Shown: positions 205 to 34,599, numbered from the stretch's first letter. The stretch: DNA of 64,000 nt from Candidatus Omnitrophota bacterium (GCA_035352955.1 DAOPYQ010000007.1:20164-84163), one strand, 5' to 3'. The notes: generated by a model from the letters alone, not told the origin. Translations and numbers: made by a program.

Positions 205-3200
205 TTACACTTTGGGAAACGTCACAATAAAAACAGAACCCTTGCCGGCTTCACTACGGGCCGTGATCTCCCCGCCCATCTGCCGGACGATCTTCTGGCA
301 GACCGAAAGTCCGATCCCCGAACCTTCGTACTCTTCCCGGGTATGCAGCCGCTGGAACGGCGCAAAGATCCTGTCCTTATATTTTTCGTCAAATCCGATG
401 CCGTTATCTTCCACGGTGATCTCAAAATGCCCCGGCAACGCAGAACTCCGGACCGCCACACGGACCGGAACGTCCTTCTTCCGGTATTTGAGGGCGTTTC
501 CGATCAAATTCAAAAAAAGCTGATGCATCTGAGTCCGGTCCGCATACACCACGGGAAGCGGGCCCACGTCCACGACCGCATCCGCCTCTTTGACCCTCAT
601 TTCAAGGTCCGAAAGAACTTCTTCGACGACGTCCTTGAGAGGAATATGTTCGAGCACTTTTTCGCGGGTCGCGACCCGCGAATAAGCCAAAAGGGCATCG
701 ATCAGCGAACTCATCCGGGCGGCGGCACCCTGCATCCGTTCCAGATAATCTTTCGACTCTTCATCCAGCACCCGGGTGTCCTTCTCTGACAGCAATCTTG
801 AAAAAGCAGAGATCTTGCGCAACGGCTCCTGGAGGTCGTGGGATGCCACATACGCGAACTGCTCCAGCTCCTTGTTCGAGCGAAGAAGCTCATCCTGGAT
901 CTTTTTCAGCCCGGTAATGTCCACAATGACCCCGACGATGTGCTCTTTACGGTCCTCATCTACATAGAGAACTTTTTTCGTAATGACCGTATGCGTAAAG
1001 CCCTTTGAATCCGTGAACTTCTCCTCGTTCACATTTTCTCCCTTGGAGAGAAAGACCTCTTCGTCCTTCTGCCAGAAAACATCCGCTTCGCTCCTCGGGA
1101 AGAAATCATGGTCCGTTTTGCCGATCAACTCTTCCCGCTTGCGTCCCATGAAATTGCAGTAAGCATCGTTCACCAGCATCCAGCGATGGTCCCGGTCCTT
1201 CACGAAAAGGGGATCCCCCACGGAGTTGATGATCCTGTCGAGAAAATTCCGGGAAGCACCCAGCGCCGCCTCAATTTTCTTCCGCTCGGTAATATCCACG
1301 CAGGTCCCAACCCATTCCCGGATACTCCCGTCCGCATTAGAGATCGGAACACCGCGGGCGAGAAAATCACGATAAACGCCATCGCTTCTCCGGATACGGT
1401 ACTCAGTTTCATAAGGACTCTTCGTTTCCACCGCTTGACCCCAGACCCGGCGCGTGTGTTCCCGATCCTCCGGATGGATCGCTTCGAGCCATCCCCAGCC
1501 TTTGACGTCCTCGACTTTTTGTCCTGTAAATTCCCTCCAGGGCGGCATATCTTCGACTTTCCCGTCCGCTGACGTGACCCATCCTAGCTGCCCCGTCACC
1601 TCGATATAAGACCGATAACGTTCTTCGCTCTCGCGCAGTTCTTCCAAGGCTTTTTTCCGCTCGGTGATATCTTCCTTGATCGCAATAAAATGCGTAATAC
1701 GTCCCTGGGCATCCTTGATCGGCGAAATCGACGCCGCTTCCCAAAAAAGCTCCCCGTTCTTTTTCCTGTTGTGAAACTCCCCGCGCCATTCTTTCCCCGC
1801 CAAAATGGTCGCCCAAAGTTTCTCATAGGCCTCACGAGACTGTTCGCCGGATTTCAGGATCCTGGGATTCTTGCCAAGCGTTTCTTCAAAAGAATAGCCC
1901 GTGACTTCGGAGAATTTCGGGTTCGTATATTCGATATTCCCCTGAAGGTTCGTGATCACAATCGCCGCGGGACTCTGTTCGACAGCTCGGGAAAGCTGGC
2001 GGATCTTCTCCGCGGCTTCCCGGCTTTCGGTAATATCCAGGATCGCGCCATCCAGAAAAAGAAGATTTCCCCGGGGATCAAAAATCGGTTGCCCCTTTTC
2101 ATAGACCCAGCGGGCAACTCCGTCGGCACGAAGGATCCGGTATTCAACAATGTACGGTTTTTTCTCGAAGATCCCTCGCTGGACGGCATCGCTCGTGATC
2201 CTTTGATCTTCCGGGTGGATAATGCTCGCGTAACTCCTCACACGGTTATGAATGAAATCAGAAGCGGGATAGCCGGAGATCCGGAAAATCTCATCGCTCA
2301 GGAACTCCATGGTCCAGGACTCATCGTTCTTGCACCGGTAAACCGCGCTAGGAAGATTCGCGACAAGCGTCCTGAACCTTTCTTCACTCTCGCGAATCTT
2401 TTCTTCGGCTTCCCGGACAGCGGTAATATCCTCGTAAGTCCCGAGAATGCCCGTCACGCGACCCTGCTCATCCCGCAACGGGACCTTGTTCGTGCGGGTC
2501 CAAAACCGGCGTCCGTCGGACTTCACGGCGGATTCTTCATAGTTTAATTTAGCGACCCCTCGCTCCATGACCTGTTTGTCATCTTCCCGGTAGTGATTCG
2601 CCAACGAATTCCAGCTAAGATCAAAATCTGTCTTTCCCACGATTTCTTCCGGTGAATTTAAACCGAGGTCTGCAGCACAAGCCTGGTTGCAACCGAGATA
2701 CGTCGAATACCAATCCTTCCAGAATACACGGATCGGGACCGTATCCAGCACCAATTTCATCATCTGCCGAGACGTCCACAAAGCTTCCTGGGCCTGCTTG
2801 CTTTCCGTAATGTCCCAAACAATCCCGTTGACCCGAAGAGGTTTCCCCGTTTCATCACGGACCAGTTTTCCCCGGGCGGTAATATGCCGAACCATCCCTC
2901 CGGGACGGAGGACCCGATACTCGGGCTCATACAGAACCCCGGTTTCAAAAGTCTCCTGAAAAAGCCGTTTTAGCATCTCCCGGTCGTCGGGGTGAACGAC
3001 ATTGAAAAATTCCTCGGTCGTACCCTGAAAGCCGGACGGATCGATCCCGAGGATATGACAGGCCTGATCGTCAAAATAACGTTTGCCCTCGGCGATCTCA
3101 AAATGCCACACGCCCATACTTGCCGCTTGGAGGGCGAGATCCAACCGCGCCTTGCTCCCACGCAATTCCTCCTGGACTCTCCTGCGCTCAAGAACTTCCG

Positions 3201-12554: not shown

Positions 12555-13304
12555 TCAGAAAACAGGAACGCCTTCGACAGGAACCACTTCCGTCCTCAGA
12601 GAACCGCCAGGATCCAGAAAAAGAGTGACGGAGTGATAAATCCTCTTCGCGGATTCGGGCAATTCGTGGATCATGGCCGCACCGCCTCCGGCAGTGACCG
12701 TGACCGGATAACCATCGGCTTCAAATTCGTAGAACCCGTGAACGTGCCCGCAAAAGATGTGGCGTATCCGCCCACGATGCGGCTCCAGGACAGTCTTCAG
12801 TTCGTTCCAGTCCTCATCTTTTAAAAATTTCCGGTTACCGGAAACCGGCGGCGGGATATGCATCAACACCAGAAAATCCTTGTCCCCGTGCGTTTCCAGG
12901 GACTGTTTCAAAAGACCGAGATCTTCCTTCGAAAAATGACCCGTGGCATTGCAAAGAAAAAAGCAGACGATCTTGTCGAGCAGCAACGCATAAGACAACC
13001 GGCCGAGAAATCGGGTGTAGCCGGCAAGATCATGGTTCCCGCGCACCGCAAAAACCGGCACGCGGACCCGGGCATCAAAAAACCGTATGAGATCCCGGAA
13101 TTCCTCGTCCAATCCCGTGAACGTAAGATCGCCGAGCATAAAAAAAAGATCGGTTTTCTGCGCGAGGATCTGCCCGAGAACTTGCTTGCTCTCATCAGAA
13201 AACCGCGTACAACCCGGATCCCCCGCCATCACGATCTTCCGGATCCCCGAAAGCCGGATCTCGGGAGAATCCACGTATTGAAGACCGCCTTTCTTCTCCG
13301 ACAT
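12555..13304 (-). CDS. Calcineurin-like metallophosphoesterase
   Basis: GDLTFTG...GNHD...GHVH phosphoesterase motifs. Confidence 0.8.
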   Translation of the reverse strand: MSEKKGGLQYVDSPEIRLSGIRKIVMAGDPGCTRFSDESKQVLGQILAQKTDLFFMLGDLTFTGLDEEFRDLIRFFDARVRVPVFAVRGNHDLAGYTRFLGRLSYALLLDKIVCFFLCNATGHFSKEDLGLLKQSLETHGDKDFLVLMHIPPPVSGNRKFLKDEDWNELKTVLEPHRGRIRHIFCGHVHGFYEFEADGYPVTVTAGGGAAMIHELPESAKRIYHSVTLFLDPGGSLRTEVVPVEGVPVF

Positions 13305-13454
13305 GGCAAACTCCTTTTCCTTTAGGGAAATACCCCGCGGTAAGAATCCAATGCTTTAGGTGGGACGATTATACTCGTTCTTAGGGAATCTGTTAATCAG
13401 GCGGGCATTATTTTTCGGGGCCGGACGATTAGCGACTCTTGTGAGTTTTATGGA

Positions 13455-13575
13455 AACTAATGGCTGGGGAACCAGGATTTGGCCCCTTCCGCTTCGCTTC
13501 AGGTAGGCCACCCGCACTTACAAACATGACATTCAGTCATGTTTTGTTCACAAGTGCTCCCCTCAAATCCTGGTG
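13455..13575. repeat. Island-terminal arm repeat (copy A). The first 18-19 nt are identical to the 3' end of tRNA-Gln; an imperfect palindrome follows.
   Basis: ctggggaaccaggatttgg at 13455-13473 equals 21533-21550 (tRNA 3' end) and 21396-21414. Downstream ...ggccacccgcacttacaaacatgacatt.agtcatgttt..acaagtgctccc.tcaaatcc.gg matches 21440-21512 at about 85-90% identity. Confidence 0.7.
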
Positions 13576-13895
13576 TTTTGGGGTGCCGTAGAGAAATTTC
13601 ATTAATTCTCACGGCAAGTTCTTGTGCATTGAGCGCAAGAGCTGCCGGATCAGGTTGAAAAGAATGGGTTATCTCTCCTCCCGGCTGATTAGAGCGGCCA
13701 TTATATTTGCCCGCATTACCCAGTACCAGCCGAATCTAGAGATACCTTCATTTCGGACATTTGACCGGACATATCAGGACAAAATGATGTCAAAAATTGC
13801 AATGCCGTACGCGGCCATCCATAAGCCGCGACGGCATAGTACTTGCGCGCTAGGCGCAAGTGTCCCTTTTGTCCTGTTTTTTGAAGGGCATTTTT

Positions 13896-13985
13896 CTGCC
13901 CTGACTTTTATTTTTTTTGGGTAGATGGTAGTCAGGACTGCCTCAATTTCCGCTTCGCGAAAATTGATAGAGATTGGGACTGCAA
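13896..13985. repeat. ~90-bp hairpin-containing repeat, intergenic copy
   Basis: ctgccctgact-(T-rich loop)-agtcaggactgcctcaatttccgcttcgc.aaattgatagagattgggactgcaa; about 80% identical to 19706-19795, which lies inside the giant CDS. Confidence 0.6.
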
Positions 13986-14090
13986 CTTATCCGCCGAAGG
14001 ACGGATCCGTCCATGTTTGTGGCGGATTCTTGCTGAATTAGATACAAAATGTCCGAGCCCAAGGGGGTGGACATTTTTAAAAATCTGCGC

Positions 14091-14115
14091 ATTCTGGGAC
14101 ATATTGTCCCAGAAT
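14091..14115 (-). terminator. Putative rho-independent terminator of the giant gene
   Basis: Perfect 11-bp stem attctgggaca/tgtcccagaat with a 3-nt loop, 14 nt past the stop at 14129. On the minus strand it is followed by GCGCAGATTTTTAAAAAT. Confidence 0.5.
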
Positions 14116-14128
14116 GGTGTAGCAGAAA

Positions 14129-17100
14129 TTATGCAGCTTTTTGAGTTTCAGATTGAGCGAGGTAAGCTTGTTCGATATCACGGAGAAGGGCATTGCCCAT
14201 AATCGTAATGAGCCGCCCATCCTTTTTGAAAGCTTGTTCGGAAACAGGATAACCGGTTTCTTGCAAGGCCCGGATCAGCTCGGCCTTAAGATCGATGGTT
14301 TCACCGGCCCCTTTCTTCTCTTTGGCAATGATAGCCACCTTAATCAGGATCGCAGCGAACAGCGCCTGGATCGCAAATTGAGTGTCCGCATCCATGTTCA
14401 TCCCCTCAGCGTTAAAGAAAAGCCCCTGGAACATTTCGTTAAGAGCGTTTGCATCCGCCGCGCTCCCAGCATCCAGAGCCATCGGAATGGCGCTTTGCCC
14501 ATCGGAAGCCGTTACGGCAATTCCGCCACGAATTTCTTTCGGGCTTAAAGGTCTTAGATTGAAAACCTCTCGCATGGCACCGCTCACTTTTTGTGCCAGC
14601 ACTTTGCCGGTATCACGATCTGAAAAGATTTCAGCTTGAAGCCCGTTTTCCAGAACAACCTTGAAAAGCTCCTCATAAAAAGACGCTAGACCAGGACCCT
14701 GGTCCTTAGAAAAATTGAGAGCGAGGGTAATCTGGGACGTGACAGGCATAGCCCCCTCGGCCCGCACGCGGCCGAACTTGAGAATCTTGGCCACACAATC
14801 CAATACCGCAGTGAGCCTCGTTCCTCCCGCCAGAGCAACTTCCTGAGTCACCGCTCTCTTAGCCAACTCCATCCCCACAACCTGTATGGCAGATCTAATC
14901 AAAGCATCAAGCTCACCTCGAACAACCACATATTCAATATGTTGCGCTTCTTCCGGGCCGAAACGCTGTGGGCTCACAGGATTCAACGCTTCCGCAACCC
15001 ATCCGCCCATTACCTCAGTAGACGTTTCATCCGTTACACGTTGTTCAGAGCGTGTAATAATAAATTCTGAAGGAAGCCGTGAGACAATAGAGGAAAATTC
15101 CGGCATTTTTTTATTTAAAACTTCGGTCACGATCTTTTTATAATCCGCAGGTTCGGTGAACTCTTCCGGCTTGAGGTCCAGTCCGGCATATTGGTTTACA
15201 AATTGAATAAATCGGCGTGCGATTTCAGGATTGATTCTCTCAAGGCCTTCTTTCGTCAGATCCTTATAAATAGAATCCCCGAGGCTGTCCTCTAACCGAT
15301 TTTGGAAATCAAAAACAAGATCGATTGCTTTTAAATAGGCCCTGATCCGTCCCCACGCCTCTCCGGAAAATCGCTGAGCCACCGCGTTGGGAATCGCATT
15401 CAATGACTCATCCAACTTGCGCCTATCACCCCGCATTACATAAAGGTTCTGACCACCACCGGGACTTCCGTTGAATGACTTAATAAGAAGTTCCATTTCG
15501 TAGATAAGTTTTCCGAGGGGGTAATCGTTTGTTCGGGCCGACCATGGAATATCCATATTTGAGGCAAGCGTTCTTAATTGAGCCTCAGTCCCGGCAAGAT
15601 GTGCCTTGTCCATGAGGTCCAATCCTTTGACTTCATCTAACCAAGTCGTCCCGTTAAAAGGATCCGTTATATTATTAGTGATCGTCATGGGAGTAAAACC
15701 ATGATCCAGAATCGATCGCTCCACAGCTTCCTGAGCGCCAAGATTTTCATCGAAATATGCAATTTGAATCTTTTTCTGGTCCAGCCATTGCCGCATCGCC
15801 TCGGGAATTTCCGCAAGCTTCCCTCGTCTGATGAGTATCCATGAGCCCTCAGGCAATTCAAAAGGTCCAACGTGCGACGTTGCAGTATGCCAAAGGTTGG
15901 CAAAGCCCTGCTTCGACGCCTCAGAAAAGGGGCTCATGAAAATTACATCAGCCGAATTGAGCATGGCGATGACACCGTTCAATGAAAACTCTACGATATT
16001 TCGAGGCAAACTCTCAAGAGGATGTTCCCCCTCAAAATAAGAATTAGGATAAAGTGCAATCCTTTTTCCATCCCAGACAAGACCTTGGGCGGCATGAACC
16101 AAAACCATGCCTTCGGGTCGCAAAGCACCGTCAGGACCGATCAGGGGTTGAGGTTTCCCACGTTCATCCTGCTCCTGCTGATAGAGAAGCTTCTGTTTCA
16201 GCTGGTGGACCTGATCTAGAACCCCAGATATTTTCTGAAGGCTCGAATCTCTTTCACCCGCAAAGGGATCCTCATTCGACAGCTTTGCTAATTTCGAAAA
16301 ACCCTCGGCTTCCAGGTTTACGGAGGGAAACCAGGCGCCTTTTTCAAAATTTCCTCCCCACAAGCCATTTCCGTCGACAAACTTTGCAGCTGCTGAAAAG
16401 AGCCCAGCGAGCTTGATGCAGGTTGAAGCTGAAATTCCAGAATTTTGAGAAAGCTGTGCGATCTTTTCAGCTCCCCAATCATCGGAACTTCGGATATAAC
16501 GGTTTTCTTCCTGGCTCCAAGGCAACTCGATAGGAGCATTCAAATAACTGGAAATAGCCAACGCTGTATCTGTTTCTCGTCGCGTGAATCCTAAATCCGT
16601 CATTACCCGCTCGATCACTTCTTTCATGAGTCGGTCCCGGTAATCGTAAAATCTTTCATTTTCACCCCTTTCAGGAACGGGGACACCCGCCTTTAAGAGC
16701 AAGTCGATCAAAGATCGATCGTCTTTACTGAACCAGGCATTTGCAGTAACAGTTTGCATATCCTGCAAAACTGCAAGGATCCGAATCACGGCTGCGATCC
16801 TGATTCCTGGCACCGCAGGAATTCCGTAAGATCGGAGCAATGGTTCAAGAATTCTAAAATAGCGCCTTTTTGCATCTATTAAATTGATATCGTGCCAGCG
16901 CACAAGCCTTCCGGCAGTGTTCACGTCATCCCGCGCCAAATGCCGGGTAAAGATCTTTTCTAGGTCCGGGTAATGCCGAAGAAAAAATTGGACGGGATCT
17001 CCTTCACCAGCTTCGAGAAAAGCGCTATCGTTTTCGGCGAACGCCACTGTAGGGGAAAGCTCAGGGTCAAGATACTGACGGGCCCTGTTCAAGAAAGCTT

Positions 17101-20100
17101 CAATCTCTCGAACCCGTTGCAGATCCTGAATCCCCGGGATTTCCAGGGCCAACTTATCTATAACCGCGATCAATTCGCCCCTTTCCATGGAGCTAAGCCT
17201 TGGCACCCCCCCAAGATCCACCCGCGCTTCGGAGCGGCCGGCTTGACCTATATTTCCGAGCAATTTTAAAATCTCAGGGCTTTTCACAAGCGCAGGCGGA
17301 TACTGGTTCTCTCCGATTTTTTCCGCTGGCAAGGAAGACAAAATATGGGATTGCCCGGTTCGCCCGATAAACAACTCCACCTCTTTATCCTGCACCCCTC
17401 TTTTAAACCGCCATTGTTCTCCACCCACAGCGATATCAAATTCCTTGTCTCCTGTTACAGCCCTTTTAGAAAAGTCATTGCTCAAGCGCTCAAAGAGCCT
17501 ATCAACAAGGGTAAGCGGTTTCTGTTTCATGCTCGGAATCCTTTCCGCTATTGTTATTGGCAAAATCCAATCGGTAGAAGGATTCGATATATTTTTATCT
17601 CCTTGTACTTTCTCAAAGCTCTGATGCTTTTTTCTGATTAAAATAAAATGATTAAATTCTCCATTGGAAGACCTATGAAAATAGAGCGTTCCCGCATCGG
17701 TCATGTTTCTACCCAACATTCGGCTTAGATCCTGAGTCTGAACCGCGGTTGAACTTTGGGCCGGCTTTAGCCCTTGAGGCTTCTCACCCAGAAGCATCCA
17801 TACATTACTCTTTTGAGGATCAAACATCTTGGTCTCCTGGGTGTGTCCTAACAATCCAATGGCCTTCTCAGAGATCATTTTTGAAACAACCTTTTGATCT
17901 CCCGACCATGACAACTCACTCGGCACGAGAACATGAACATGATAAAACCCGGACATAGTGCCAATTTCTTGATTTTGTTCATAACCGTTATCAACCGCAA
18001 AGGCTATCATTTTTTGAAGTGCATCAAGAAAGTGAGCTGGTATTTCTTCGGAAAAAAAATTGCGTTCATTATCTTTCATATACATGGCACGATAGGCATC
18101 CCAGGTTATCCATGCCGTCGCTGGCTGTTCCAAAGATTCAGCTCCAGATTCTTCGCGGTTTTCGGAACGGGTTTCGGGGCGTTTGTTCGCTGGAGTTCCA
18201 GAATCTGGCGCAGGAGAAACCTCCTCCCGAGTAAGTTGCCAACCATACCGTGCCGATTCCTTGCCATAATTCGACCTATCGATAAAAGCACCCTGCGGAG
18301 TTACCCTCATTCCGTCTATAATTTCGCCTTCCTCATTCAGCCTTCGATGAAACTGCGCGATAACGCCTGGAACTCTGGCCTGCACTCCTCTTTCCTCTTC
18401 CTCCGGACTACGTGAGTAAGAATCATCTCTATAATCAATTATGTACTCGATGTCCGACGCACGAAATCCTTTCCCCAACAACCTATTGTGGATGGCCTGT
18501 ACATGATCAGCAAGCGAACGGCCCTTGTCTTTCCAACGTATATAAATGTGGCCAAGCCCGTAATGAGCGGCGTAATTAGCAGAAGCGCGAATGTTGATGG
18601 CAACACCAGTGCAAGCAGAAAGATTGCGTGTCACCAAGCTAACGTTTGGATAAGTGTCAGAATCAAACACGGCCAGATCGCCCGTATTTATAAAAAAATC
18701 TTCACCTTCTTTTTCTATAGGCATAACACTATCGGTTGCATCGCCGTTCCAAACGAAAACGCCTCCTTCTCCATTTTTAACGTATTTAGCAGAGGATTGC
18801 ACTTTTTTACCCGTAACAGCATTCTTAATCATTTTCAAAGAGTTCATGAGCCAAGGCAGGAGTCTGATTTCTGTCCGCCCATCAGGTGCAAGTTGATTAG
18901 CTAAAGAAACTTCAGGGATAGTAATAGTTCTGATGAGCTGGAGGATGCTGGATTCGCTAAGGTTGCCTTCAGCCTGGAGTTGTTTGAGGCCTTCGCCGAA
19001 GCGGTCGATGTTGGCGAGCCATCGCTCTTTTAGATTTGAAGTTTGGAGCCGGGAGTTCGAAGAAAGCTCATCGATGAAATGGGTGTAGTTGCCGGCTTCA
19101 GTAACTCGTCCCTCAGAAGCAAGATCGCGGATGATTTGGTCACGCCATTCTTTTCCGACGATAGCGGAAGCATTTTTATCTCCAAGAAGCTTATCTCTTG
19201 CGGCTCTTACAAAAGCATCGTAAAGATTAACTTTACCGTTTTTGACTTCGAAATAATTGCTCCAGGAGACCTGCCCCTGCATGTGTTCGCGGTAAAGCGG
19301 CTCTTCGGGAATGGAACCGATTGAAGGCATAACGAGAACATAAGAGATCCCCTTTTCTTTCAACTCCCGTGTAAGCCCTTCGGTGTGGAAACCTCCGGCA
19401 ACGAGCAGAGAGCTCTCTTGTTTTGCTTTTTCCATCATAGACTGAATATTCTCGCGGAACACTTTATCGCGCTTCTCCGCAATACGATAAAAAGCTAGTT
19501 GCGGTTCCATCTTCTTGAGAAGCGCAGTGACTTCCTCCCAGCTGACAATCCGGTCCTGCGTTACGGTCCACTGATCCAGTTGAAGCATCATCTTCTGGAC
19601 CTTTCCCCAATCCTCAAAGCTGAGTTCGAGACGAGCGAGGCGTTTGATCAAATCGAGGCCTTTGCTTTTTTGATCGAGCACGCGCATTGCGTTGACGCGG
19701 TCGTTCTGCCCCGACTCTTGTTTTTCTTTGATGGACGGTAGTCGGGGCTGCCCCAATTTCTGCTCTGCTTCAATTGATGATGATAGGGACTGGAAAAGCG
19801 ATTCCTTGACCGAATCAGCGTAACGCTTAAAGTCCTCGAAAAGTCGCGTGCCTTCAATGTCTTTTAACCGTTTTTGATGCTCCGTTAAGTAAGCCAACTT
19901 GCGGGAGACCTTGACGCGAACCCCGTATTTTTTAGCCAGTCCCTTAAGATAGAGTGCAAAAGCCTGCGGAGTGACCTGCGCGATCCTAAATTCCTGATAT
20001 TTTTGGTTAAAAATGCGCAGGTCATCCCGAGCGGAGTCGAGGGATCTTTCTTTAAGAACGGCTTCGACTTTTTGAGCGATCTTTTTGATCTCGATCTCGA

Positions 20101-20950
20101 CAGGCGTATCCGTCATTTGGCCCTTGTCCCCATTGGACAAGGACGGCTTCGGCGAGAACTTGTTGTTCTCGTCCGAACCGCTCAGTTTTATTTCTTCAAG
20201 CAATACCGCGAGTTCGGAACCTTTGGGTGGCAGCTGATATTCAGCAAGTTTATTCAGAATCTGCACAAGGTCTGTTTTATTCTCGCCAAAATCCGCCAAC
20301 AGCCGATCGATCTCAAACATCTCTTTGGAATAGACGAATCCTTTTTCCTTGTTCAGAGCGGCCGCCATCGGATCAAGCAGTGCCTTGATCTCAGGTTCCA
20401 TCTTCATCGCCTGAAGATAATAGGAAACGCCTTCTTCATAGAGCGACCAATCCTCAATGCCCTGATAGGTGCCGGGGGATGCATTGAACAGTGCTGCCGC
20501 CGTGCCGCCGGTGAGTTCGCCCCTTCCTGCGTAAGCATCGAAGGTTTTGCGAAGCAGTTCCTTATCTGGGAAACTCTTGAATATCTGCGGGTCCAGTTTT
20601 TCGGATGCCCCTTCGAGGCCGACCAATGAAACTCCGTATTGGGTCTGGAAATGATCAATGGCGGACCGAATACTGTGCTGGGCATCGGGAATCGAGTGGG
20701 CATCCTGGATCAGCACCACAACCTCATCACCCGACCCGCGGTAGGTCTCTTGAATCTTCCCGATCTCTTTAGGTATTGCGATTGCCGTAAGATCATTCGT
20801 GAGCGATCGAAAACTTACAGCAGGTGTTGGACTAATTTCAGCACTCGCTTGCGGCAAGTAACCCGAAGTCACAAAAAACGCTGCGCACACGAATAGAGCT
20901 ATTCCTTTTCTCAGCATTGGCCTTGGTGACTTTTTGTAAATCTTTATCAT
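14129..20950 (-). CDS. Giant (2273 aa) secreted protein of unknown function; N-terminal signal peptide, no domain I can assign
   Basis: Uninterrupted 6.8-kb ORF. N-terminus MIKIYKKSPRPMLRKGIALFVCAAFFVTSGYLPQASA/EIS (SPase I type). Non-repetitive sequence with no catalytic motif I recognise. Coding region is visibly AT-richer than its flanks. Confidence 0.8.
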   Translation of the reverse strand: MIKIYKKSPRPMLRKGIALFVCAAFFVTSGYLPQASAEISPTPAVSFRSLTNDLTAIAIPKEIGKIQETYRGSGDEVVVLIQDAHSIPDAQHSIRSAIDHFQTQYGVSLVGLEGASEKLDPQIFKSFPDKELLRKTFDAYAGRGELTGGTAAALFNASPGTYQGIEDWSLYEEGVSYYLQAMKMEPEIKALLDPMAAALNKEKGFVYSKEMFEIDRLLADFGENKTDLVQILNKLAEYQLPPKGSELAVLLEEIKLSGSDENNKFSPKPSLSNGDKGQMTDTPVEIEIKKIAQKVEAVLKERSLDSARDDLRIFNQKYQEFRIAQVTPQAFALYLKGLAKKYGVRVKVSRKLAYLTEHQKRLKDIEGTRLFEDFKRYADSVKESLFQSLSSSIEAEQKLGQPRLPSIKEKQESGQNDRVNAMRVLDQKSKGLDLIKRLARLELSFEDWGKVQKMMLQLDQWTVTQDRIVSWEEVTALLKKMEPQLAFYRIAEKRDKVFRENIQSMMEKAKQESSLLVAGGFHTEGLTRELKEKGISYVLVMPSIGSIPEEPLYREHMQGQVSWSNYFEVKNGKVNLYDAFVRAARDKLLGDKNASAIVGKEWRDQIIRDLASEGRVTEAGNYTHFIDELSSNSRLQTSNLKERWLANIDRFGEGLKQLQAEGNLSESSILQLIRTITIPEVSLANQLAPDGRTEIRLLPWLMNSLKMIKNAVTGKKVQSSAKYVKNGEGGVFVWNGDATDSVMPIEKEGEDFFINTGDLAVFDSDTYPNVSLVTRNLSACTGVAINIRASANYAAHYGLGHIYIRWKDKGRSLADHVQAIHNRLLGKGFRASDIEYIIDYRDDSYSRSPEEEERGVQARVPGVIAQFHRRLNEEGEIIDGMRVTPQGAFIDRSNYGKESARYGWQLTREEVSPAPDSGTPANKRPETRSENREESGAESLEQPATAWITWDAYRAMYMKDNERNFFSEEIPAHFLDALQKMIAFAVDNGYEQNQEIGTMSGFYHVHVLVPSELSWSGDQKVVSKMISEKAIGLLGHTQETKMFDPQKSNVWMLLGEKPQGLKPAQSSTAVQTQDLSRMLGRNMTDAGTLYFHRSSNGEFNHFILIRKKHQSFEKVQGDKNISNPSTDWILPITIAERIPSMKQKPLTLVDRLFERLSNDFSKRAVTGDKEFDIAVGGEQWRFKRGVQDKEVELFIGRTGQSHILSSLPAEKIGENQYPPALVKSPEILKLLGNIGQAGRSEARVDLGGVPRLSSMERGELIAVIDKLALEIPGIQDLQRVREIEAFLNRARQYLDPELSPTVAFAENDSAFLEAGEGDPVQFFLRHYPDLEKIFTRHLARDDVNTAGRLVRWHDINLIDAKRRYFRILEPLLRSYGIPAVPGIRIAAVIRILAVLQDMQTVTANAWFSKDDRSLIDLLLKAGVPVPERGENERFYDYRDRLMKEVIERVMTDLGFTRRETDTALAISSYLNAPIELPWSQEENRYIRSSDDWGAEKIAQLSQNSGISASTCIKLAGLFSAAAKFVDGNGLWGGNFEKGAWFPSVNLEAEGFSKLAKLSNEDPFAGERDSSLQKISGVLDQVHQLKQKLLYQQEQDERGKPQPLIGPDGALRPEGMVLVHAAQGLVWDGKRIALYPNSYFEGEHPLESLPRNIVEFSLNGVIAMLNSADVIFMSPFSEASKQGFANLWHTATSHVGPFELPEGSWILIRRGKLAEIPEAMRQWLDQKKIQIAYFDENLGAQEAVERSILDHGFTPMTITNNITDPFNGTTWLDEVKGLDLMDKAHLAGTEAQLRTLASNMDIPWSARTNDYPLGKLIYEMELLIKSFNGSPGGGQNLYVMRGDRRKLDESLNAIPNAVAQRFSGEAWGRIRAYLKAIDLVFDFQNRLEDSLGDSIYKDLTKEGLERINPEIARRFIQFVNQYAGLDLKPEEFTEPADYKKIVTEVLNKKMPEFSSIVSRLPSEFIITRSEQRVTDETSTEVMGGWVAEALNPVSPQRFGPEEAQHIEYVVVRGELDALIRSAIQVVGMELAKRAVTQEVALAGGTRLTAVLDCVAKILKFGRVRAEGAMPVTSQITLALNFSKDQGPGLASFYEELFKVVLENGLQAEIFSDRDTGKVLAQKVSGAMREVFNLRPLSPKEIRGGIAVTASDGQSAIPMALDAGSAADANALNEMFQGLFFNAEGMNMDADTQFAIQALFAAILIKVAIIAKEKKGAGETIDLKAELIRALQETGYPVSEQAFKKDGRLITIMGNALLRDIEQAYLAQSETQKAA
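19706..19795. repeat. ~90-bp hairpin-containing repeat, in-frame copy inside the giant CDS
   Basis: Perfect 9-bp inverted repeat gccccgact (19708-19716) / agtcggggc (19740-19748), then ctgccccaatttctgctctgc.tcaattgatgatgatagggactggaa. It encodes ...EAEQKLGQPRLPSIKEKQESGQNDRV... of the giant protein. Confidence 0.6.
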
Positions 20951-21395
20951 CTGTAAGTTTCCTTGGTCATAGCACTTCTAATTAGAATATAACCTGTTAT
21001 TTATAAAAAAGGTCTATTTGCTATATAAAGATAGTATTTACTATTAATAGTATTCTGAAAACTCCATTTTCTTTGGGAAACTCAGCTCGACACTATTAAC
21101 TTGCTATATCTCCGTTTCTAAAACATGTATGTTTCAGGAGGCCGGACACGGCAGGAATGAACAATATTGGATAACAAATTGAGACGTTGAAAACGATGGG
21201 GACAGCGGAGTTGCTGTTTCGATAAAGAGAGGCTTTCGAGACCAAGCCGGCACCAGAAACCGAACCTTCCTAATTCGGCAATAGGCCTACAAAATTCAGG
21301 GATTGGTAAATGGAAAAGTGTTTTTACGGACTTTGAAATAGCTCGGAGCTATAGGAGGAGATGCTTTGACAGCCGTGCAGAAGAACTGGGGAACC

Positions 21396-21532
21396 AGGAT
21401 TTGGCGCCTCCGCTCGCCTCGTGCAACGAGGCAAGCTACGGTCGGCCACCCGCACTTACAAACATGACATTAATTCATGTTTGTGAACAAGTGCTCCCTT
21501 CAAATCCCGGGAACCCATCAATGTAAAGAAAC
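21396..21532. repeat. Second direct copy of the tRNA-Gln 3' 18-19 nt (att-like) plus the 119-bp arm element between it and the intact tRNA
   Basis: 21396-21414 ctggggaaccaggatttgg; 21415-21532 holds the imperfect palindrome cacttacaaacatgacattaattcatgtttgtgaacaagtg, similar to copy A. Confidence 0.7.
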
Positions 21533-21603
21533 CTGGGGAACCAGGATTTGAACCTAGACTAGGTGATCCAGAGTCACCTGTGCTACCGTTACACCATTCC
21601 CCA
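21533..21603 (-). tRNA. tRNA-Gln (anticodon CTG)
   Basis: Minus-strand TGGGGAATGGTGTAACGGTAGCACAGGTGACTCTGGATCACCTAGTCTAGGTTCAAATCCTGGTTCCCCAG. It has a 7-bp acceptor stem with U1-A72, G73 discriminator, anticodon loop CUCUGGA, and T-loop GGTTCAAATCC. CCA is not encoded. Confidence 0.8.
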
Positions 21604-21816
21604 ACGTATCAAGCAGAGCAAATTTAATTGCGGCAACGGGATCTTGAAGTCCCGCTTGCGGCGTCGCGCAGTCCCGGCTGACTTGTGACCGGGGCACTAT
21701 TCCCCAATAAATCAACGATTGAATTATAGCCGATAACCTCAAAAAGAGGAGGGATTATAGCGGGACTTTCTGTTTCGCGCAATGTCTGCCGCAGAACAAT
21801 CCCGAGACTCTCGGAA

Positions 21817-23508
21817 CTACTTCCGCTTCTGCTCGATCTTGCCCCAGGTATCACGAAGCGTGACGATCCGGTTGAAAACGGGTTTTCCAGGCTGCGAATC
21901 CTTCGGATCCGCGAAAAAATAACCCATCCTCTCAAACTGGACGCGCTCCCCCGTCTTGACGTTCCCGAGGGCCGGCTCCAGCTTCGCGTTCCTTAATACT
22001 TCCAGAGAATTCGGGTTCAGATTCACGAAGATATCCTTCCCCTCAGGAAAATCGCTCGGATCCTTGGCGAAGAAGAGATGATCATAAAGCCGGACCTCAG
22101 GCGACACGGCATGTTTCGCCGACACCCAATGGATCGTCCCTTTGACCTTGCGGCCATCCGGAGGATTGTTCCCTCCCCGCGTCGCGGGATCGTACGTGCA
22201 ATGAACTTCTTGCACCTCGCCGGTCGCCGGATCCTTGATCACCTTCTCGCATTTGATGAAATACGCGTACCGAAGGCGCACTTCCTGCCCCGGCGCGAGC
22301 CGGAAATATTTTGGCGGCGGTACTTCGCGGAAATCGTCCTGGTCGATATAGAGTTCGCGCGAGAACGGCACCTTCCGCGCTCCGGCCGCGGGATCCTCGG
22401 GATTATTCACAGCCTCGAGTTCTTCGGTCTGCCCCTCGGGATAATTGGTGATGACGACTTTCAGGGGCTTCAGAACCGCCATCATGCGCGGCGCGGTCTT
22501 GTTAAGCTCTTCGCGGATCGAATTTTCCATGACCACCATGTCGATCGTGCTGTTGAACTTCGCGACACCGATCTGATCGCAGAAATTCCGGATCGAGGAT
22601 GCCGTGTAACCCCGGCGGCGGTATCCGGAAATCGTCGGCATTCGCGGGTCGTCCCATCCCGAAACGATCTTCTGCTGGACCAGTTTCAAAAGGATGCGTT
22701 TGCTCAGGACCGTGTGCGTCAGGTTAAGCCGCGCGAATTCGATCTGCTGCGGCTGGTGGACCCCGAGCTCGATCAGGAACCAGTCGTAGAGCGGCCGGTT
22801 GTTCTCGAACTCGAGCGTGCAGAGCGAATGCGTGATTCCTTCGATCGAATCTGAAATACAGTGCGTGAAATCGTACATCGGATAGATGCACCATTTGTCG
22901 CCGGTCCGGTGATGCGACGCCTTCTTGATACGGTACATCGTGGGATCACGCATGTTGATATTGGGTGAGCTCATGTCGATCTTCGCGCGGAGCACGCGGG
23001 AGCCTTCGGCGAACTCGCCTTTACGCATCCGTTCAAAAAGATCCAGGTTCTCCTCAACCGTGCGGTTCCGGTACGGGCTCTCCCTCCCCGGCGCGTTCAG
23101 GACGCCGCGGTATTCGCGAACCTGGTCAGGAGAAAGATCACAGACGTAAGCCTTCCCCTTTTTGATAAGCGTGAGGGCGTGCTGGTAGATCGCGTCAAAA
23201 TAATCGGAGGCGTAATATTCGCGGTCGGCCCAGTCAAATCCGAGCCAATGGACGTCCTCGCGTATCGAATCGACGTATTCGACCTCCTCTTTTTCCGGGT
23301 TGGTATCATCGAGACGAAGATTGCAGAGCCCCTTGTAGTCGCGGGCGATCCCGAAACTGATGCAGATGGCCTTGGCGTGCCCGATATGGAGATAGCCGTT
23401 CGGCTCCGGCGGAAAGCGCGTATGCACGCGGCCGCCGTTCTTACCCTTGGCGATATCCTGATCGATGATATCGCGAATAAAATTAGACGGTGTTTTAGGG
23501 ATTTCCAT
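21817..23508 (-). CDS. glnS: Glutaminyl-tRNA synthetase
   Basis: [20 protein letters not shown] (HIGH) and VLSKR motifs; GlnRS-type C-terminal anticodon-binding region. Confidence 0.9.
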
Positions 23509-32680: not shown

Positions 32681-32749
32681 GGAAAAGAAACCGTGCCTCG
32701 ATCTCACGGGATGACCGGCCATTCGCTTCTTCCGCTATATAAAAAACTT

Positions 32750-32823
32750 TGCCCCTAGCATGAATCGAACATGCAACCCTCTCCTTAGGAAGGAGATGCT
32801 CTATCCAATTGAGCTATAGGGGC
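32750..32823 (-). tRNA. tRNA-Arg (anticodon CCT)
   Basis: Minus-strand GCCCCTATAGCTCAATTGGATAGAGCATCTCCTTCCTAAGGAGAGGGTTGCATGTTCGATTCATGCTAGGGGCA forms a cloverleaf with anticodon loop UUCCUAA and T-loop TTCGATT. Confidence 0.8.
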
Positions 32824-33065
32824 ATTGAAACCCAATGTTTTAATACGACACCGTCGAGGCTCGATGTTTTAGATCGTCCCTATGGGATCTGGGAGGCCTC
32901 GTACGCTAACCGCCTATTTCCCGATAAATCTATAAAGATACGGAAGAAAACAGGGAGAATGATAGCAGATTCCCCCATGGCTGTCTCTATACAAACCCGC
33001 CAAAATTAGGCATAGTGACGGTCACCTGCATGCCAAGGATGCGCTACCTCACCCGATGCGTCAGG

Positions 33066-33602
33066 TTACCCTTCCCCGCCGGACGGCATCCGGTATCCGG
33101 GTATCTCCGGCATCTGTAGATTGCCAGCGTATCTATAGGATTCTAAGCAAAAGCGGCGCAATGAATCACTGCCTTTTGCATAGAAAAGAACCCAATCGTC
33201 CCCATATTCATTCACATCATAAGTACCACCAGCAGATAAGTCCATTTTTAGGTGGCCGATAGAATTGATGGCAACAGCTTTCTCAGTCTGCGGCAACCTC
33301 AAGGCAAAAGATATATTTGTAGCCTGAAAACCAAAAATAACTCCATTTTTGGGTCTCACTAAAACCGCGCGGCCACGAACAATCCACCTGCAATCTTCCG
33401 GCAAATCTTTTGTTATTTCATTCCAAAAGATTCTTACAACTTCCGCATGCATTCCAAGCTTTAGTTCTACTTGGTCTATCGAGGCAGGGTCACATTCATC
33501 TTTCGTTTGAAAATTATAAGCGGGCTTAATAAATGGACCATGTTTTGATAAATATTTTTGGTTAGCCGGATGTGAAAAATTCACTTTGGACATTTGCACC
33601 AC
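33066..33602 (-). CDS. Hypothetical protein (178 aa) in the AT-rich island
   Basis: ORF with no recognisable motif; AT-rich codon usage unlike the core genes. Confidence 0.4.
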   Translation of the reverse strand: MVQMSKVNFSHPANQKYLSKHGPFIKPAYNFQTKDECDPASIDQVELKLGMHAEVVRIFWNEITKDLPEDCRWIVRGRAVLVRPKNGVIFGFQATNISFALRLPQTEKAVAINSIGHLKMDLSAGGTYDVNEYGDDWVLFYAKGSDSLRRFCLESYRYAGNLQMPEIPGYRMPSGGEG

Positions 33603-33632
33603 TCTACAAAGCTACTTTAATCGGGTCGGGGA

Positions 33633-33995
33633 TCATTTCGTATACTCTTCTTCAAGAATTTTTCCCGTATTAATATCTATTCGATACCTAGATTGCCTGC
33701 CACCAGCCCAAAGGTTACCCTCTTTATCAAATCCAACTCCCCCAAACTGATCAGGAATCCTGACCTTGTGTCCAACTCTCCACATGTCTGGGTCTTCAAC
33801 CTTCCAAATTTGCTTTCCATCTTGATTAAGGCAAATAATCCCTTCGTCGGGCACCTCGTCTCCCATCAATTCAAAGCGAACAATAATTTGCGTTTCGGTG
33901 GTTACAATATTCCCAATGGGATGTTTGAAATCCATAGTCTTCGTTCGGGTACCGTTCTCGATCGTAAGAAGAGACCCTTTGAAGCTGACATTCAT
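33633..33995 (-). CDS. Hypothetical small protein (120 aa)
   Basis: Start moved to the internal ATG (33993-33995), which is preceded by AGGAGG and removes the overlap with the upstream membrane-protein gene. Confidence 0.4.
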   Translation of the reverse strand: MNVSFKGSLLTIENGTRTKTMDFKHPIGNIVTTETQIIVRFELMGDEVPDEGIICLNQDGKQIWKVEDPDMWRVGHKVRIPDQFGGVGFDKEGNLWAGGRQSRYRIDINTGKILEEEYTK

Positions 33996-34015
33996 CCCCA
34001 CAATCCCCTCCTTTT

Positions 34016-34501
34016 TTATAAGTTTCTGCAGCGGAAGTCCCCAATATTCCCCTGCTCTGATTTGAACTTTTCCCTTACCTGCGGAAGAGAAAGATACCAA
34101 ATAAAAATGGCGGGTAACGGGATGTGAAATGACCAAAAGCAAAAAAGCATGCTGGCAGATGCGTCCCAACCTATTTTATAAGCAACGGTGGCAAACCAAA
34201 TTGACCATCCAAGCATGTAGACTGTCACGGCTACGAGCAAAAACACGTAGATCGCCCTCGCTAAATTTCTCATCTTGTAAATTCCGAACAAAAGAACCGC
34301 ACTGATAATTCCTGCCAGCTCACCCATGACAATCTCTATCCAAATAAGCCGTTCGTATTTTAAAAGTTCAAATTTTACAAGCTCGTATACTGGCACCCCA
34401 ATAAACGAGTATGCGGTAGTTAAAACCATTACCACAAACATCCAAATAAATCCTTTGGGTTTTTCGGCTTTTGCTAAGCTATTTTTTTCTTTTATTTCCA
34501 A
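34016..34501 (-). CDS. Small integral membrane protein (about 4 TM helices)
   Basis: Four hydrophobic helices (FIWMFVVMVLTTAYSFIGV..., LAGIISAVLLFGIY..., IYVFLLVAVTVYMLGWSIWFATV..., MLFCFWSFHIPLPAIFIWYL). Confidence 0.5.
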   Translation of the reverse strand: MEIKEKNSLAKAEKPKGFIWMFVVMVLTTAYSFIGVPVYELVKFELLKYERLIWIEIVMGELAGIISAVLLFGIYKMRNLARAIYVFLLVAVTVYMLGWSIWFATVAYKIGWDASASMLFCFWSFHIPLPAIFIWYLSLPQVREKFKSEQGNIGDFRCRNL

Positions 34502-34599
34502 AGCCCCCTCCTGTTCTCCCGCGCTTCCTTCTGCGATACAAGAAACCTCCCGTTGGGCTTGCCCTTAATCGAGCCGGAGATCATTTTCGTAACCAACTC

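Follow-up and report, generated by a model that had tools for sequence, protein, structure and literature searches.

Folded recombination sites of the attC type have bulges and a variable central part, and they lie in arrays of cargo plus palindrome beside a fixed primary site. Both integron attC sites and the attP of the CTX phage are imperfect palindromes of ~60-140 nt in which the outer stem reproduces the recombination target. Genomic islands in tRNA genes (tDNA islands) can form tandem arrays, as defined in the Islander and TIGER work (PMC4383910, PMC7192596). CIMEs, reviewed together with accretion at the att sites of integrative elements (PMC5704250), arise by deletion within one ICE family, are kilobase-sized and occupy one site. 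For the multi-enzyme giant proteins of Omnitrophota, preprint work names passenger genes of integrative elements as one possible reading (bioRxiv 10.64898/2026.06.07.730766; 10.1101/2023.11.21.568195).

The locus described here lies behind the glutamine tRNA gene of an uncultured Omnitrophota bacterium, within a 64-kb window (the whole stretch of DNA that was analysed). We lean slightly towards reading it as a two-unit array at the tRNA-Gln 3′ end, in which a short module may be the attachment module of a tRNA-targeting family of integrative elements and the cargo a degenerate island of the large serine recombinase (LSR) type.

Direct repeats and two modules at tRNA-Gln

The repeats, the modules and their host flanks are as follows.

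12555-13304, minus: metallophosphoesterase gene (MPE; Pfam), the host flank beyond DR3
13396-13368, minus: promoter-like site on the metallophosphoesterase side (promoter scan)
13464-13573, minus: mini-element 2, which closes the 7.8-kb cassette; IR-L 13563-13573, long hairpin 13514-13557, core block 13502-13530, DR3 13464-13481
21386-21510, minus: mini-element 1, with near-zero cargo (21-nt spacer, 21511-21531); in tRNA sense, IR-L 21500-21510, GGGAGC junction, long hairpin 21452-21494, shared core block 21440-21468, small variable hairpin, DR2 21386-21403
21532-21604, minus: tRNA-Gln(CTG) (ARAGORN; Rfam tRNA, 61 bits; exact pattern match)
21533-21550, plus-strand coordinates: DR1, the last 18 nt of tRNA-Gln and first copy of the repeat
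21817-23508, minus: glnS (Pfam), the host flank upstream of tRNA-Gln; its product has 88% amino-acid identity with Candidatus Omnitrophota MAG ELA295

The first-pass annotation had reported that the 18-nt 3′ terminus of tRNA-Gln occurs here three times, directly repeated and exact, and pattern matching bears this out. We observe exactly three plus-strand copies of CTGGGGAACCAGGATTTG, all in the same orientation (13464-13481, 21386-21403 and 21533-21550), with no further copies at up to 2 mismatches and none expected by chance (100 shuffles). The positions given earlier for the two copies outside the tRNA (13455-13472 and 21396-21413) were 9-10 nt off, and the spacings of 137 bp and 8.1 kb "further" become start-to-start distances from the tRNA copy of 147 nt for DR2 and 8,069 nt for DR3.

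Each of these two copies forms a repeat unit with its arm, of 110 nt at 13464-13573 and 125 nt at 21386-21510. The units are 92.5% identical over ungapped columns (91% for the arms alone), a value that falls to 74-77% when an 18-nt indel in the small hairpin is counted. The similarity of the arms had been recognized before, with a figure of 85-90% that we revise to 91-92% apart from the one indel. The imperfect palindrome noticed in the arms is present in both units as GCACTTACAAACATGA...TCATGTTTGT..AAGTGC (13514-13557 and 21452-21494), and the IR-L of mini-element 1 is the complement of the tRNA T-loop and the 3′ strand of the T-stem. As a whole, the tRNA has been regenerated and its 3′ segment is repeated directly twice behind it, each time with the same arm on the tRNA side, which matches the layout of two insertions made in tandem at the 3′ end of a tRNA.

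The same module behind other tRNAs

A metagenome scan with an exact 22-mer of the module core returned four contigs besides the window, all from other samples, in which the core lies just 3′ of tRNA-Thr, tRNA-Val, tRNA-Ser and tRNA-Gly. The element is found 12-77 nt 3′ of the tRNA in constant orientation relative to it, and every one of these copies has almost no cargo. Because four of the six known members were found by the exact 22-mer, the invariance of that stretch is by construction; the core similarity reaches past it, however, at 82-92% over 61-101 nt.

The ends of the element follow the tRNA. At the 3′ end, where it can be read (the Ser copy being incomplete there), each copies its own tRNA, over 18 nt for Thr and Val and 9 nt for Gly, and the longest exact match of an element end is 18 nt to the cognate tRNA versus at most 8 nt to others. 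The match of the Thr copy is 27 nt when 9 nt of trailer past the tRNA are included. All members start with the reverse complement of the T-loop/T-stem of their own tRNA, which closes a hairpin of ~100 nt, and this IR-L tracks the T-loop variant of the tRNA (CAAAT, CGAAT or CGATT). In each of the five members that are complete, the first 10 nt of the repeat are the pairing partner of IR-L; 4 of the 10 closing pairs change on both sides among members, and 94% of cells are paired. Two short-read contigs (L001 and L085) start inside the element, an assembly break as at a repeat. A related genome (L096) has no module between tRNA-Thr and tRNA-Tyr, and none is present at 80 glnS loci, nearly all of other phyla.

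Since the same module stands behind other tRNAs with its ends matched to each, it has the look of a portable docking unit, not of a decayed arm left over from a single dead virus-like island. The first-pass annotation had treated the arm as part of the tRNA-Gln island and the proximal element as reduced to 119 bp. With the core at several tRNAs with cognate ends, the arm is not specific to tRNA-Gln, and this supposed remnant is instead a complete cargo-less unit, a full mini-element of about 125-129 bp from a miniature-element family.

A foreign cargo related to serine recombinase islands

Between the repeats, we observe the following features.

14129-20950, minus: giant ORF of 2273 aa, the sole ORF longer than about 210 aa between the repeats
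21163-21320, plus: DUF2924 gene, of which a 5′ stub is left, oriented divergently to the giant gene
13586-14128, no strand assigned: distal non-coding cargo region, a composite of segments
14026-14108 and 13641-13751: segments whose homologues lie downstream of the giant gene in a related island (L094)
13894-13985: fragment of a giant-gene N-terminal coding region
13757-13882, plus: segment "X", a conserved hairpin/terminator unit found directly after glnS in a relative (L002)

The 7.9-kb unit is compositionally foreign. The segment between the repeats (about 7.8-7.9 kb) has a GC content of 0.474 versus 0.536 in the rest of the window, the lowest among 281 sliding 7.9-kb windows. GC3 of the giant gene is 0.48 versus 0.62-0.73 in glnS, gltX, MPE and other neighbours, and its 4-mer usage correlates with that of the remaining window at 0.73, versus 0.87-0.97 for control blocks. 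The lower GC of the island relative to its neighbours, remarked on earlier, holds, and the single 6.8-kb ORF described there is indeed the only long one.

The giant protein has a signal peptide or transmembrane segment. Its N-terminal module (~700 aa) and its C-terminal module (~310 aa) are conserved, whereas the middle part between them (aa 720-1950) is an orphan, with R[ST]ExR junction motifs at aa 692, 928, 1239 and 1967. The N-terminal module gave no sequence matches in Pfam, NCBIfam or PDB; its alpha/beta core fold is that of the TIKI/TraB/erythromycin-esterase superfamily. It also contains an invariant pattern, DAH...E...GGFH, which we take to resemble the motifs of these families. In the passages of the giant-protein and LSR literature that were searched, we found no description of this family of 1.5-3.9 kaa, whose members have the N-terminal and C-terminal modules and the R[ST]ExR junctions in common.

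The flanks of the giant gene had been described as merely AT-rich and non-coding, a description that gives way to the DUF2924 stub, the giant-gene fragment and the hairpin/terminator unit listed above. They have a counterpart in the L094 island, where the set is intact: behind what is probably a tRNA-Gln 3′ end lie an LSR gene, DUF2924 and a homologue of the giant gene. A tblastn search of the window with its DUF2924 protein aligns residues 4-47 at 46% identity (E 1e-4), and positions 20951-21298 are 72% identical (E 2e-44) to its giant-upstream/DUF2924 region, so that both flanks of the giant gene and the stub match this island. LSR genes are present in L094 and L095 and follow a further giant homologue (P0008), while an excisionase-type HTH_17 gene lies upstream of another (L091). 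In contrast, neither an integrase nor a serine recombinase was detected in the segment or in the whole window (Pfam; tblastn with LSRs and tyrosine integrases). The earlier statement that the island has no integrase or mobility gene stands in this respect, whereas it has not been stripped of every trace: judging from the homology, the stub is the remnant of a DUF2924 and LSR pair, and the 7.9-kb unit has lost its recombinase.

These homologies also allow for two unrelated layers, in which the giant-gene island was put beside tRNA-Gln by its own LSR and the mini-elements inserted independently, before and after, with no role in delivery. The L094 island argues for this, as it combines the tRNA 3′ end, LSR, DUF2924 and giant homologue and has no module between the tRNA end and the LSR (nhmmer); so do the P0008 homologue, which likewise adjoins an LSR, the stub in the window and the standing of tRNA 3′ ends as insertion hot spots (PMC4383910). 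We nonetheless regard two layers as a doubtful, if serious, possibility: three separate events at one tRNA would be required, an LSR target would be needed in the short spacer between the tRNA and mini-element 2, and LSR island ends are defined at no locus.

The search for an empty tRNA-Gln site suggested by the first-pass annotation found the identical island in 11 of 11 contigs with the identical flanking gene, which represent one population, and neither an empty site nor an excised form was seen among these or elsewhere. Around MPE homologues at 60-65% identity, from more distant relatives, there is no synteny. In the closest relative (L002), the contig ends 414 nt after glnS and the arrangement is different: glnS is followed directly by a part of the cargo's distal non-coding region, inverted and without the tRNA, which a simple insertion history leaves unexplained.

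Fold, strand and the possibility of an RNA

In no member does the tRNA-sense strand of the module fold less well than its complement, and for whole elements its advantage is 3-10 kcal/mol. Two variable stem positions form G-U on the tRNA-sense strand versus C-A on the other, and paired positions are kept among members as loops and bulges vary. Such a pattern would suit a module that acts mainly as a structured RNA and not as a recombination site. This RNA would be transcribed from the tRNA strand as a trailer of the tRNA and end in a tRNA-like 3′ tail, and the spread to several tRNAs would be secondary. Consistent with this, we find no terminator between tRNA-Gln and mini-element 1 except a weak one formed by the tRNA end.

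We consider an RNA function of this kind unlikely to be the main one. The strand signal is weak because the search pattern left the 3′ arm no freedom to vary, while in the 5′ arm, which is rich in A and C, most transitions would yield wobble pairs anyway. In Rfam, only tRNAs pass gathering scores over the window, and the elements have no match up to E 10 except one near threshold, which spans the tRNA and extends to the IR-L edge of mini-element 1 (E 9.9; 17 bits versus a gathering score of 52). Moreover, the 9 nt of duplicated trailer in the Thr copy point to a DNA event, and the 7.8 kb between the two copies would be left unexplained.

Tyrosine integrases and local duplication

The first-pass annotation had seen in the repeats and arms the pattern of tyrosine-integrase elements. 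The corresponding history would be two tRNA-Gln-specific islands in tandem, both decayed (one to 129 bp), with the arms as the P-arm of the island family. It follows classical tDNA island logic (PMC4383910), the repeat geometry fits, and tRNA-adjacent tyrosine integrases occur in related bacteria, as behind the neighbouring tRNA-Tyr in L083. We find it distinctly improbable, however, since the arm occurs at five different tRNAs with both ends tuned to each, the copies outside the window are nearly cargo-free, and five independent decays ending at one boundary would be unlikely. In addition, the sole recombinase remnant in the cargo is linked to the serine type. Tyrosine-integrase islands of the same bacteria that are homologous to that of L083 (L096-L100) have neither the module nor any repeat within 10 kb. 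We found no autonomous element that carries the module, and no tyrosine integrase or other recombinase could be tied to it. Finally, a local segmental duplication or homologous recombination in this genome would yield two direct copies with 91-92% identity, and a chance resemblance would likewise have no wider meaning, but both are hardly credible given four more members at other tRNAs in other samples and a chance expectation of zero for the 18-mer.

A proposed two-unit array and its relation to known systems

In the two-unit array that we favour slightly, each unit would consist of cargo followed by a structured module of 110-125 nt, with 21 nt of cargo in unit 1 and 7.8 kb in unit 2. Read in tRNA sense, the module starts with ~10 nt complementary to the T-loop and T-stem 3′ strand (IR-L), continues with a conserved core containing a long interrupted hairpin (6+10 bp) and then a small variable hairpin, and ends by repeating, in direct orientation, the part of the tRNA that runs from C56 to the discriminator base. 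It would serve as the attachment module of tRNA-targeting integrative elements in Omnitrophota-type bacteria and could exist without cargo. The modules would then be recombination sites, with recombination inside the T-loop-to-3′-end segment common to module and tRNA; this would restore the tRNA and, as classical tDNA islands do, place another copy of the segment at the distal end. Because no recombinase is present in the window, the enzyme would act in trans, and it may use the modules as duplex DNA, as a folded single strand or as RNA. A free circle of ~120 bp is implausible as duplex DNA, so cargo-less units would need deletion from larger elements or a single-strand mechanism. The 7.8-kb cargo may be a degenerate island that formerly had an LSR and DUF2924 and that delivers a modular, hypervariable giant secreted or membrane protein; it could have come with module 2 or have been added later by its own serine recombinase.

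Compared to known systems, the locus resembles tDNA islands in its regenerated tRNA with displaced 3′ fragments as direct repeats, in an identity block from the T-loop to the tRNA end, in having several units at one tRNA and in cargo that deviates from host composition. Unlike tDNA islands, no unit contains an integrase, the att-side arm is common to different tRNA targets and holds an inverted target copy that closes a hairpin, and one unit has only 21 nt of cargo. As in CIMEs, both units are bounded by att repeats and lack recombination and transfer genes, and one stands in tandem with a cargo-bearing unit, whereas the module is only about 110-125 nt long, occurs at five tRNAs and has target-matched ends. 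With MITEs and other miniature palindromic repeats, the module shares being short, ORF-free, hairpin-forming and multi-copy, and it breaks short-read assemblies; it differs in that the direct repeat of 9-27 nt is the tRNA 3′ end rather than a short target-site duplication of fixed length, and in that its terminal inverted repeat corresponds to the target and not to a site for a transposase. The cargo is like that of LSR islands in that homologues of its gene adjoin LSR/DUF2924 or excisionase-like genes, and unlike them in that the window copy has no LSR.

The module also resembles attC and the CTX attP in being an imperfect palindrome with the target, the crossover sequence, in its outer stem, in having bulges and a variable centre, and in forming an array of cargo plus palindrome beside a fixed primary site. 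Unlike integrons, the locus has no IntI-type integrase, attI or Pc promoter and the window no tyrosine recombinase, and unlike attC, the outer stem has no single consensus but changes with the tRNA. By analogy, the modules could conceivably be folded-strand attachment sites of a tRNA-anchored, integron-like cassette system, a speculative idea to which we give little credence. If true, the T-loop-to-3′-end segment of the tRNA would take the role of attI, and the hairpin at the end of every cassette would have an outer stem adapted anew to whichever tRNA is chosen. Cassettes of zero to several kb, giant-protein genes included, would then be stacked behind the tRNA by a recombinase encoded elsewhere.

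Repeats and composition at the tRNA-Gln locus

Four features of the tRNA-Gln locus are listed here with their coordinates in the window:

21532-21604, minus strand: tRNA-Gln(CTG), called by ARAGORN and Rfam
21386-21510: first repeat unit (module 1)
14129-20950, minus strand: giant gene (2273 aa), the sole large ORF between the repeats
13464-13573: second repeat unit (module 2)

The last 18 nt of the tRNA, CTGGGGAACCAGGATTTG in plus-strand reading, occur as three exact direct copies, one inside the tRNA gene (DR1, 21533-21550) and two beyond it (DR2, 21386-21403; DR3, 13464-13481), against none expected from shuffles. The first-pass annotation had claimed these three copies, and they are borne out by the tRNA calls and the exact matches, with the two extra copies lying 9-10 nt from where it had placed them. 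Each extra copy adjoins, towards the tRNA, an arm that is homologous between the copies, and the palindrome claimed for these arms is found in both. The two repeat units are 92.5% identical over ungapped columns, with an 18-nt indel within a small hairpin. Read in tRNA sense, tRNA-Gln is followed by 21 nt, module 1 with DR2 at its end, 7.8 kb of cargo, module 2 with DR3 at its end, and a metallophosphoesterase gene.

The single large ORF had also been predicted correctly, and the windowed GC and codon-usage comparison that had been proposed shows the island to deviate. The enclosed 7.9 kb has a GC content of 0.474 versus 0.536 in the remaining window, the lowest among 281 sliding windows, while the GC3 of the giant gene is 0.48 versus 0.62-0.73 in neighbouring genes, and 4-mer usage correlates at 0.73 with that of the rest of the window, versus 0.87-0.97 in control blocks. 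Because the exact repeats, homologous arms, palindrome, single ORF and foreign composition all hold on recounting, the original observation stands, and its interpretation as two tandem tyrosine-integrase islands is partly supported. The window sequence recurs base for base in 11 contigs from several samples, and its glnS protein is 88% identical to that of the closest relative, a Candidatus Omnitrophota MAG (L002), and 73% identical to that of another MAG.

Two side features are found elsewhere in the window. Part of the tRNA-Gln 5' end is repeated ~100 nt upstream of the tRNA gene (21688-21715; TTGGGGAATAGTG..), with T-arm-like sequence after it; this repeat is called by neither ARAGORN nor Rfam and may be a decayed tRNA copy. 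A second low-GC stretch (33000-35500; 0.435-0.44) lies immediately upstream of tRNA-Arg(CCT) (32749-32824) and contains an SNase-like gene and three small ORFs to which Pfam has no match; neither a tRNA-Arg 3'-end copy nor a mini-element was found in it.

A family of hairpin modules matched to their tRNAs

When a metagenome collection was scanned with an exact 22-mer from the arm, four contigs were retrieved, and in 4/4 the match lies a short way 3' of a tRNA, each time a different one:

L083: tRNA-Thr
L084: tRNA-Val
L085: tRNA-Ser (cut by the contig end)
L086: tRNA-Gly

The orientation relative to the tRNA is identical in all four contigs and the window. Invariance of the 22-mer in the four retrieved members is by construction, and the similarity beyond it (82-92% over 61-101 nt) is therefore the informative part.

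All members follow one plan. In tRNA sense, the tRNA is followed by a 12-77-nt spacer, by IR-L (the complement, ~10 nt long, of the T-loop and the T-stem 3' strand in the module's own tRNA), and by a GGGAGC junction. Next comes a long interrupted hairpin, GCRCTTG..AYAAACATGA-loop-TCATGTTTGTAAGTGC, then GGGTGGCCGACC, and the module ends with a small variable hairpin, GGCGC, and a directly repeated tRNA segment that runs from C56 in the T-loop through the discriminator base. This direct copy is cognate, the longest exact match being 18 nt to the module's own tRNA versus at most 8 nt to any other; the exceptions in length are the Thr copy (27 nt, because 9 nt of trailer are included) and the Gly copy (only 9 nt). 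Likewise, IR-L tracks the T-loop variant of its tRNA, whether CAAAT, CGAAT or CGATT. In the counted structure, 4/10 pairs of the closing helix are changed on both sides with 94% of cells paired, and the two inner helices are 100% paired. The proximal unit at tRNA-Gln, previously read as a worn-down island, is instead a complete, cargo-less member of this family, with the same plan as is found behind other tRNAs. Two short-read contigs, L001 and L085, start inside the element, which is the behaviour expected of a repeat.

The search for the arm and core in other genomes was successful in locating the arm at other tRNAs, but it recovered no empty site. Neither an empty site nor an excision product was seen, and all contigs with an identical copy of the metallophosphoesterase gene carry the island. 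Synteny around this gene, which had been put forward as a further guide, offers none, since its homologues at 60-65% identity lie in unrelated gene contexts. Rfam gives no match on the elements or their flanks at gathering or permissive thresholds, exact core patterns give 0 matches in IMG/VR, and blastn with the element gives 0 matches in phage and plasmid collections. With an nhmmer profile, no module member was detected in 80 glnS loci (nearly all from other phyla). A related Omnitrophota genome has no module between tRNA-Thr and tRNA-Tyr, and literature searches on tRNA-flanking hairpin elements returned nothing relevant.

The same geometry with unrelated cores is observed at a Lentimicrobium tRNA-Gln (L060, 11748-11960), where the tRNA's own acceptor strands are unpaired, and at a gammaproteobacterial tRNA-Ser (L078, 20016-20267). 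In both, the tRNA is followed by an inverted copy of its 3' part, 80-100 nt, and a direct copy of its 3' end, a design that may be widespread.

The cargo and its origin

Searches with the giant protein give no match in Pfam, NCBIfam or PDB sequences, and PADLOC yields a non-significant match only. The protein is one of a family with at least 100 members, which measure 1.3-4.0 kaa and are mostly labelled Omnitrophota. In this family, an N-terminal 700 aa, TraB/TIKI-like, is common to members and a C-terminal 310 aa is common to a subset, while the middles are unrelated and often contain diverse enzyme domains. The closest informative homologue, P0002, is encoded in a homologous island (L094/L095) and is 69% identical in the N-terminal module and 72% in the C-terminal module, with a different middle. 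Family proteins contain on average 3.9 copies of the motif R[ST]ExR, a density of 1.53 per 1000 aa versus 0.04 expected (~38-fold over-represented). The first of these copies directly follows the N-terminal module, and the last coincides with the start of the C-terminal module. The motif is found at aa 692, 928, 1239 and 1967 of the window protein and in family members P0002-P0060. Its placement at module junctions suggests that it serves for processing or sorting within a polyprotein-like architecture and that the giant proteins are processed into separate enzymes; that the protein is a self-processing polyprotein would be a reasonable guess. A bioRxiv preprint (10.64898/2026.06.07.730766) already reports Omnitrophota giant proteins and their mobile-element neighbourhoods.

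The L094 contig starts with a Gln-like tRNA 3' end, GGTTCGAATCCAGGTCCCCCAGCCA, followed by 465 nt, a large serine recombinase and DUF2924 gene on the opposite strand, the giant gene, non-coding DNA, and a second serine recombinase. Between this tRNA and the large serine recombinase, nhmmer detects no module, and the only repeat of the tRNA end is a 9-nt GAATCCAGG copy 135 nt downstream. Window positions 20951-21298 match L094 at 72%, and 14026-14108 and 13641-13751 match at 80-85%, while 21163-21320 still codes for roughly the N-terminal 45-55 residues of DUF2924 (46% identity, E 1e-4). Additionally, a serine recombinase adjoins another giant homologue (P0008), and an excisionase-type HTH_17 gene lies beside a third (in L091). 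The flank homology, the DUF2924 stub and the mobile-element neighbours of homologues argue that the cargo is a degenerate island of the serine-recombinase-associated kind, situated behind tRNA-Gln like its intact relative.

Two further segments lie in the distal flank of the giant gene:

13894-13985: 92-nt fragment, 76-78% identical to the coding region of ~aa 385-415 of giant-gene N-terminal modules (counterparts at window 19704-19795 and L091 2058-2149)
13757-13882, plus strand: 126-nt unit, 82.5% identical to L002 7598-7723

We read the 92-nt fragment as what is left of a further giant gene that lay downstream of the present copy. In the 126-nt unit, a promoter-like site lies at 13761-13788 and a strong hairpin resembling a terminator, T-run included, at 13839-13863; the unit may be a small RNA. 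In L002, its counterpart lies directly after glnS, in glnS sense and without a tRNA, such that position and orientation relative to glnS differ from the window; the L002 arrangement is not explained by a simple insertion history. Separately, six independent assemblies of a giant homologue (P0004; L091-L093 and three further contigs) all end at almost identical positions on either side, ~0.4-1 kb before and ~110 nt after the giant gene, which suggests repeats or alternative contexts at both ends.

Proposed mechanism and recombinase

Each unit consists of cargo followed by a module, the proximal unit being complete without cargo. We propose that recombination takes place within the T-loop-to-3'-end segment common to module and tRNA, and the geometry of the locus is that expected from such an exchange. 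Insertion would regenerate the tRNA and leave a second copy of the segment at the far end of the insert, as has been described for tDNA islands (PMC4383910), and new units would enter beside the tRNA. The giant cargo may have arrived with module 2, or its own recombinase may have placed it between the tRNA and a module that was already there.

No recombinase tied to the module was found. In L083, a tyrosine integrase gene (423-1601, minus strand) lies directly behind tRNA-Tyr, 320 nt past the tRNA-Thr mini-element. The order tRNA-Thr, tRNA-Tyr, integrase is also found without the mini-element in Omnitrophota loci L096-L098, and a link to the module finds no support, given that related loci L096-L100 have neither a module nor a tRNA-end repeat within 10 kb. 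Bridge-RNA (IS110), omega-RNA (TnpB), CAST homing-spacer, casposon and retron readings are set aside on three grounds: the two target copies, sense and antisense, span one tRNA segment and pair mutually, no such protein genes lie nearby, and the repeat once includes tRNA trailer.

As to physical form, a 120-bp duplex circle is an unlikely intermediate, which favours deletion from larger elements or a single-strand mechanism. Integron attC sites recombine by a single-strand mechanism, which the module would share in the latter case. In all members, the tRNA-sense strand folds equally well or better than the other, and two variable stem positions form G-U pairs on that strand only, a weak signal because the search pattern determines the 3' arm and because wobble pairs would result from most transitions in the 5' arm, which is rich in A and C.

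Significance and relation to known systems

A portable attachment unit that can be tuned to its target, if this is what the module is, would explain how Omnitrophota, which are poorly understood and uncultured, move and stack large variable genes behind tRNAs without an integrase in each element. It would also add a compact, re-targetable att design (~100 nt, both ends target-matched) to the repertoire of site-specific integration. Programs for island detection will overlook such units if they demand an integrase between the tRNA and its fragment, and short-read assemblies break at modules.

The island itself is an already known sort of element, and the locus works like tandem tDNA island arrays with cis-mobilizable, integrase-less units (PMC4383910, PMC5704250). 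Unlike in those arrays, the att-side arm is common to different tRNA targets, both arm ends correspond to the target, and a unit can measure as little as ~110 nt. The module resembles integron attC sites in shape and array logic, but the locus has no integron platform, and the nature of its repeats places the module outside the definition of a MITE. As far as our searches show, this family of hairpin modules represents a variant of tRNA-targeted integration not described before, and its mechanism is inferred.
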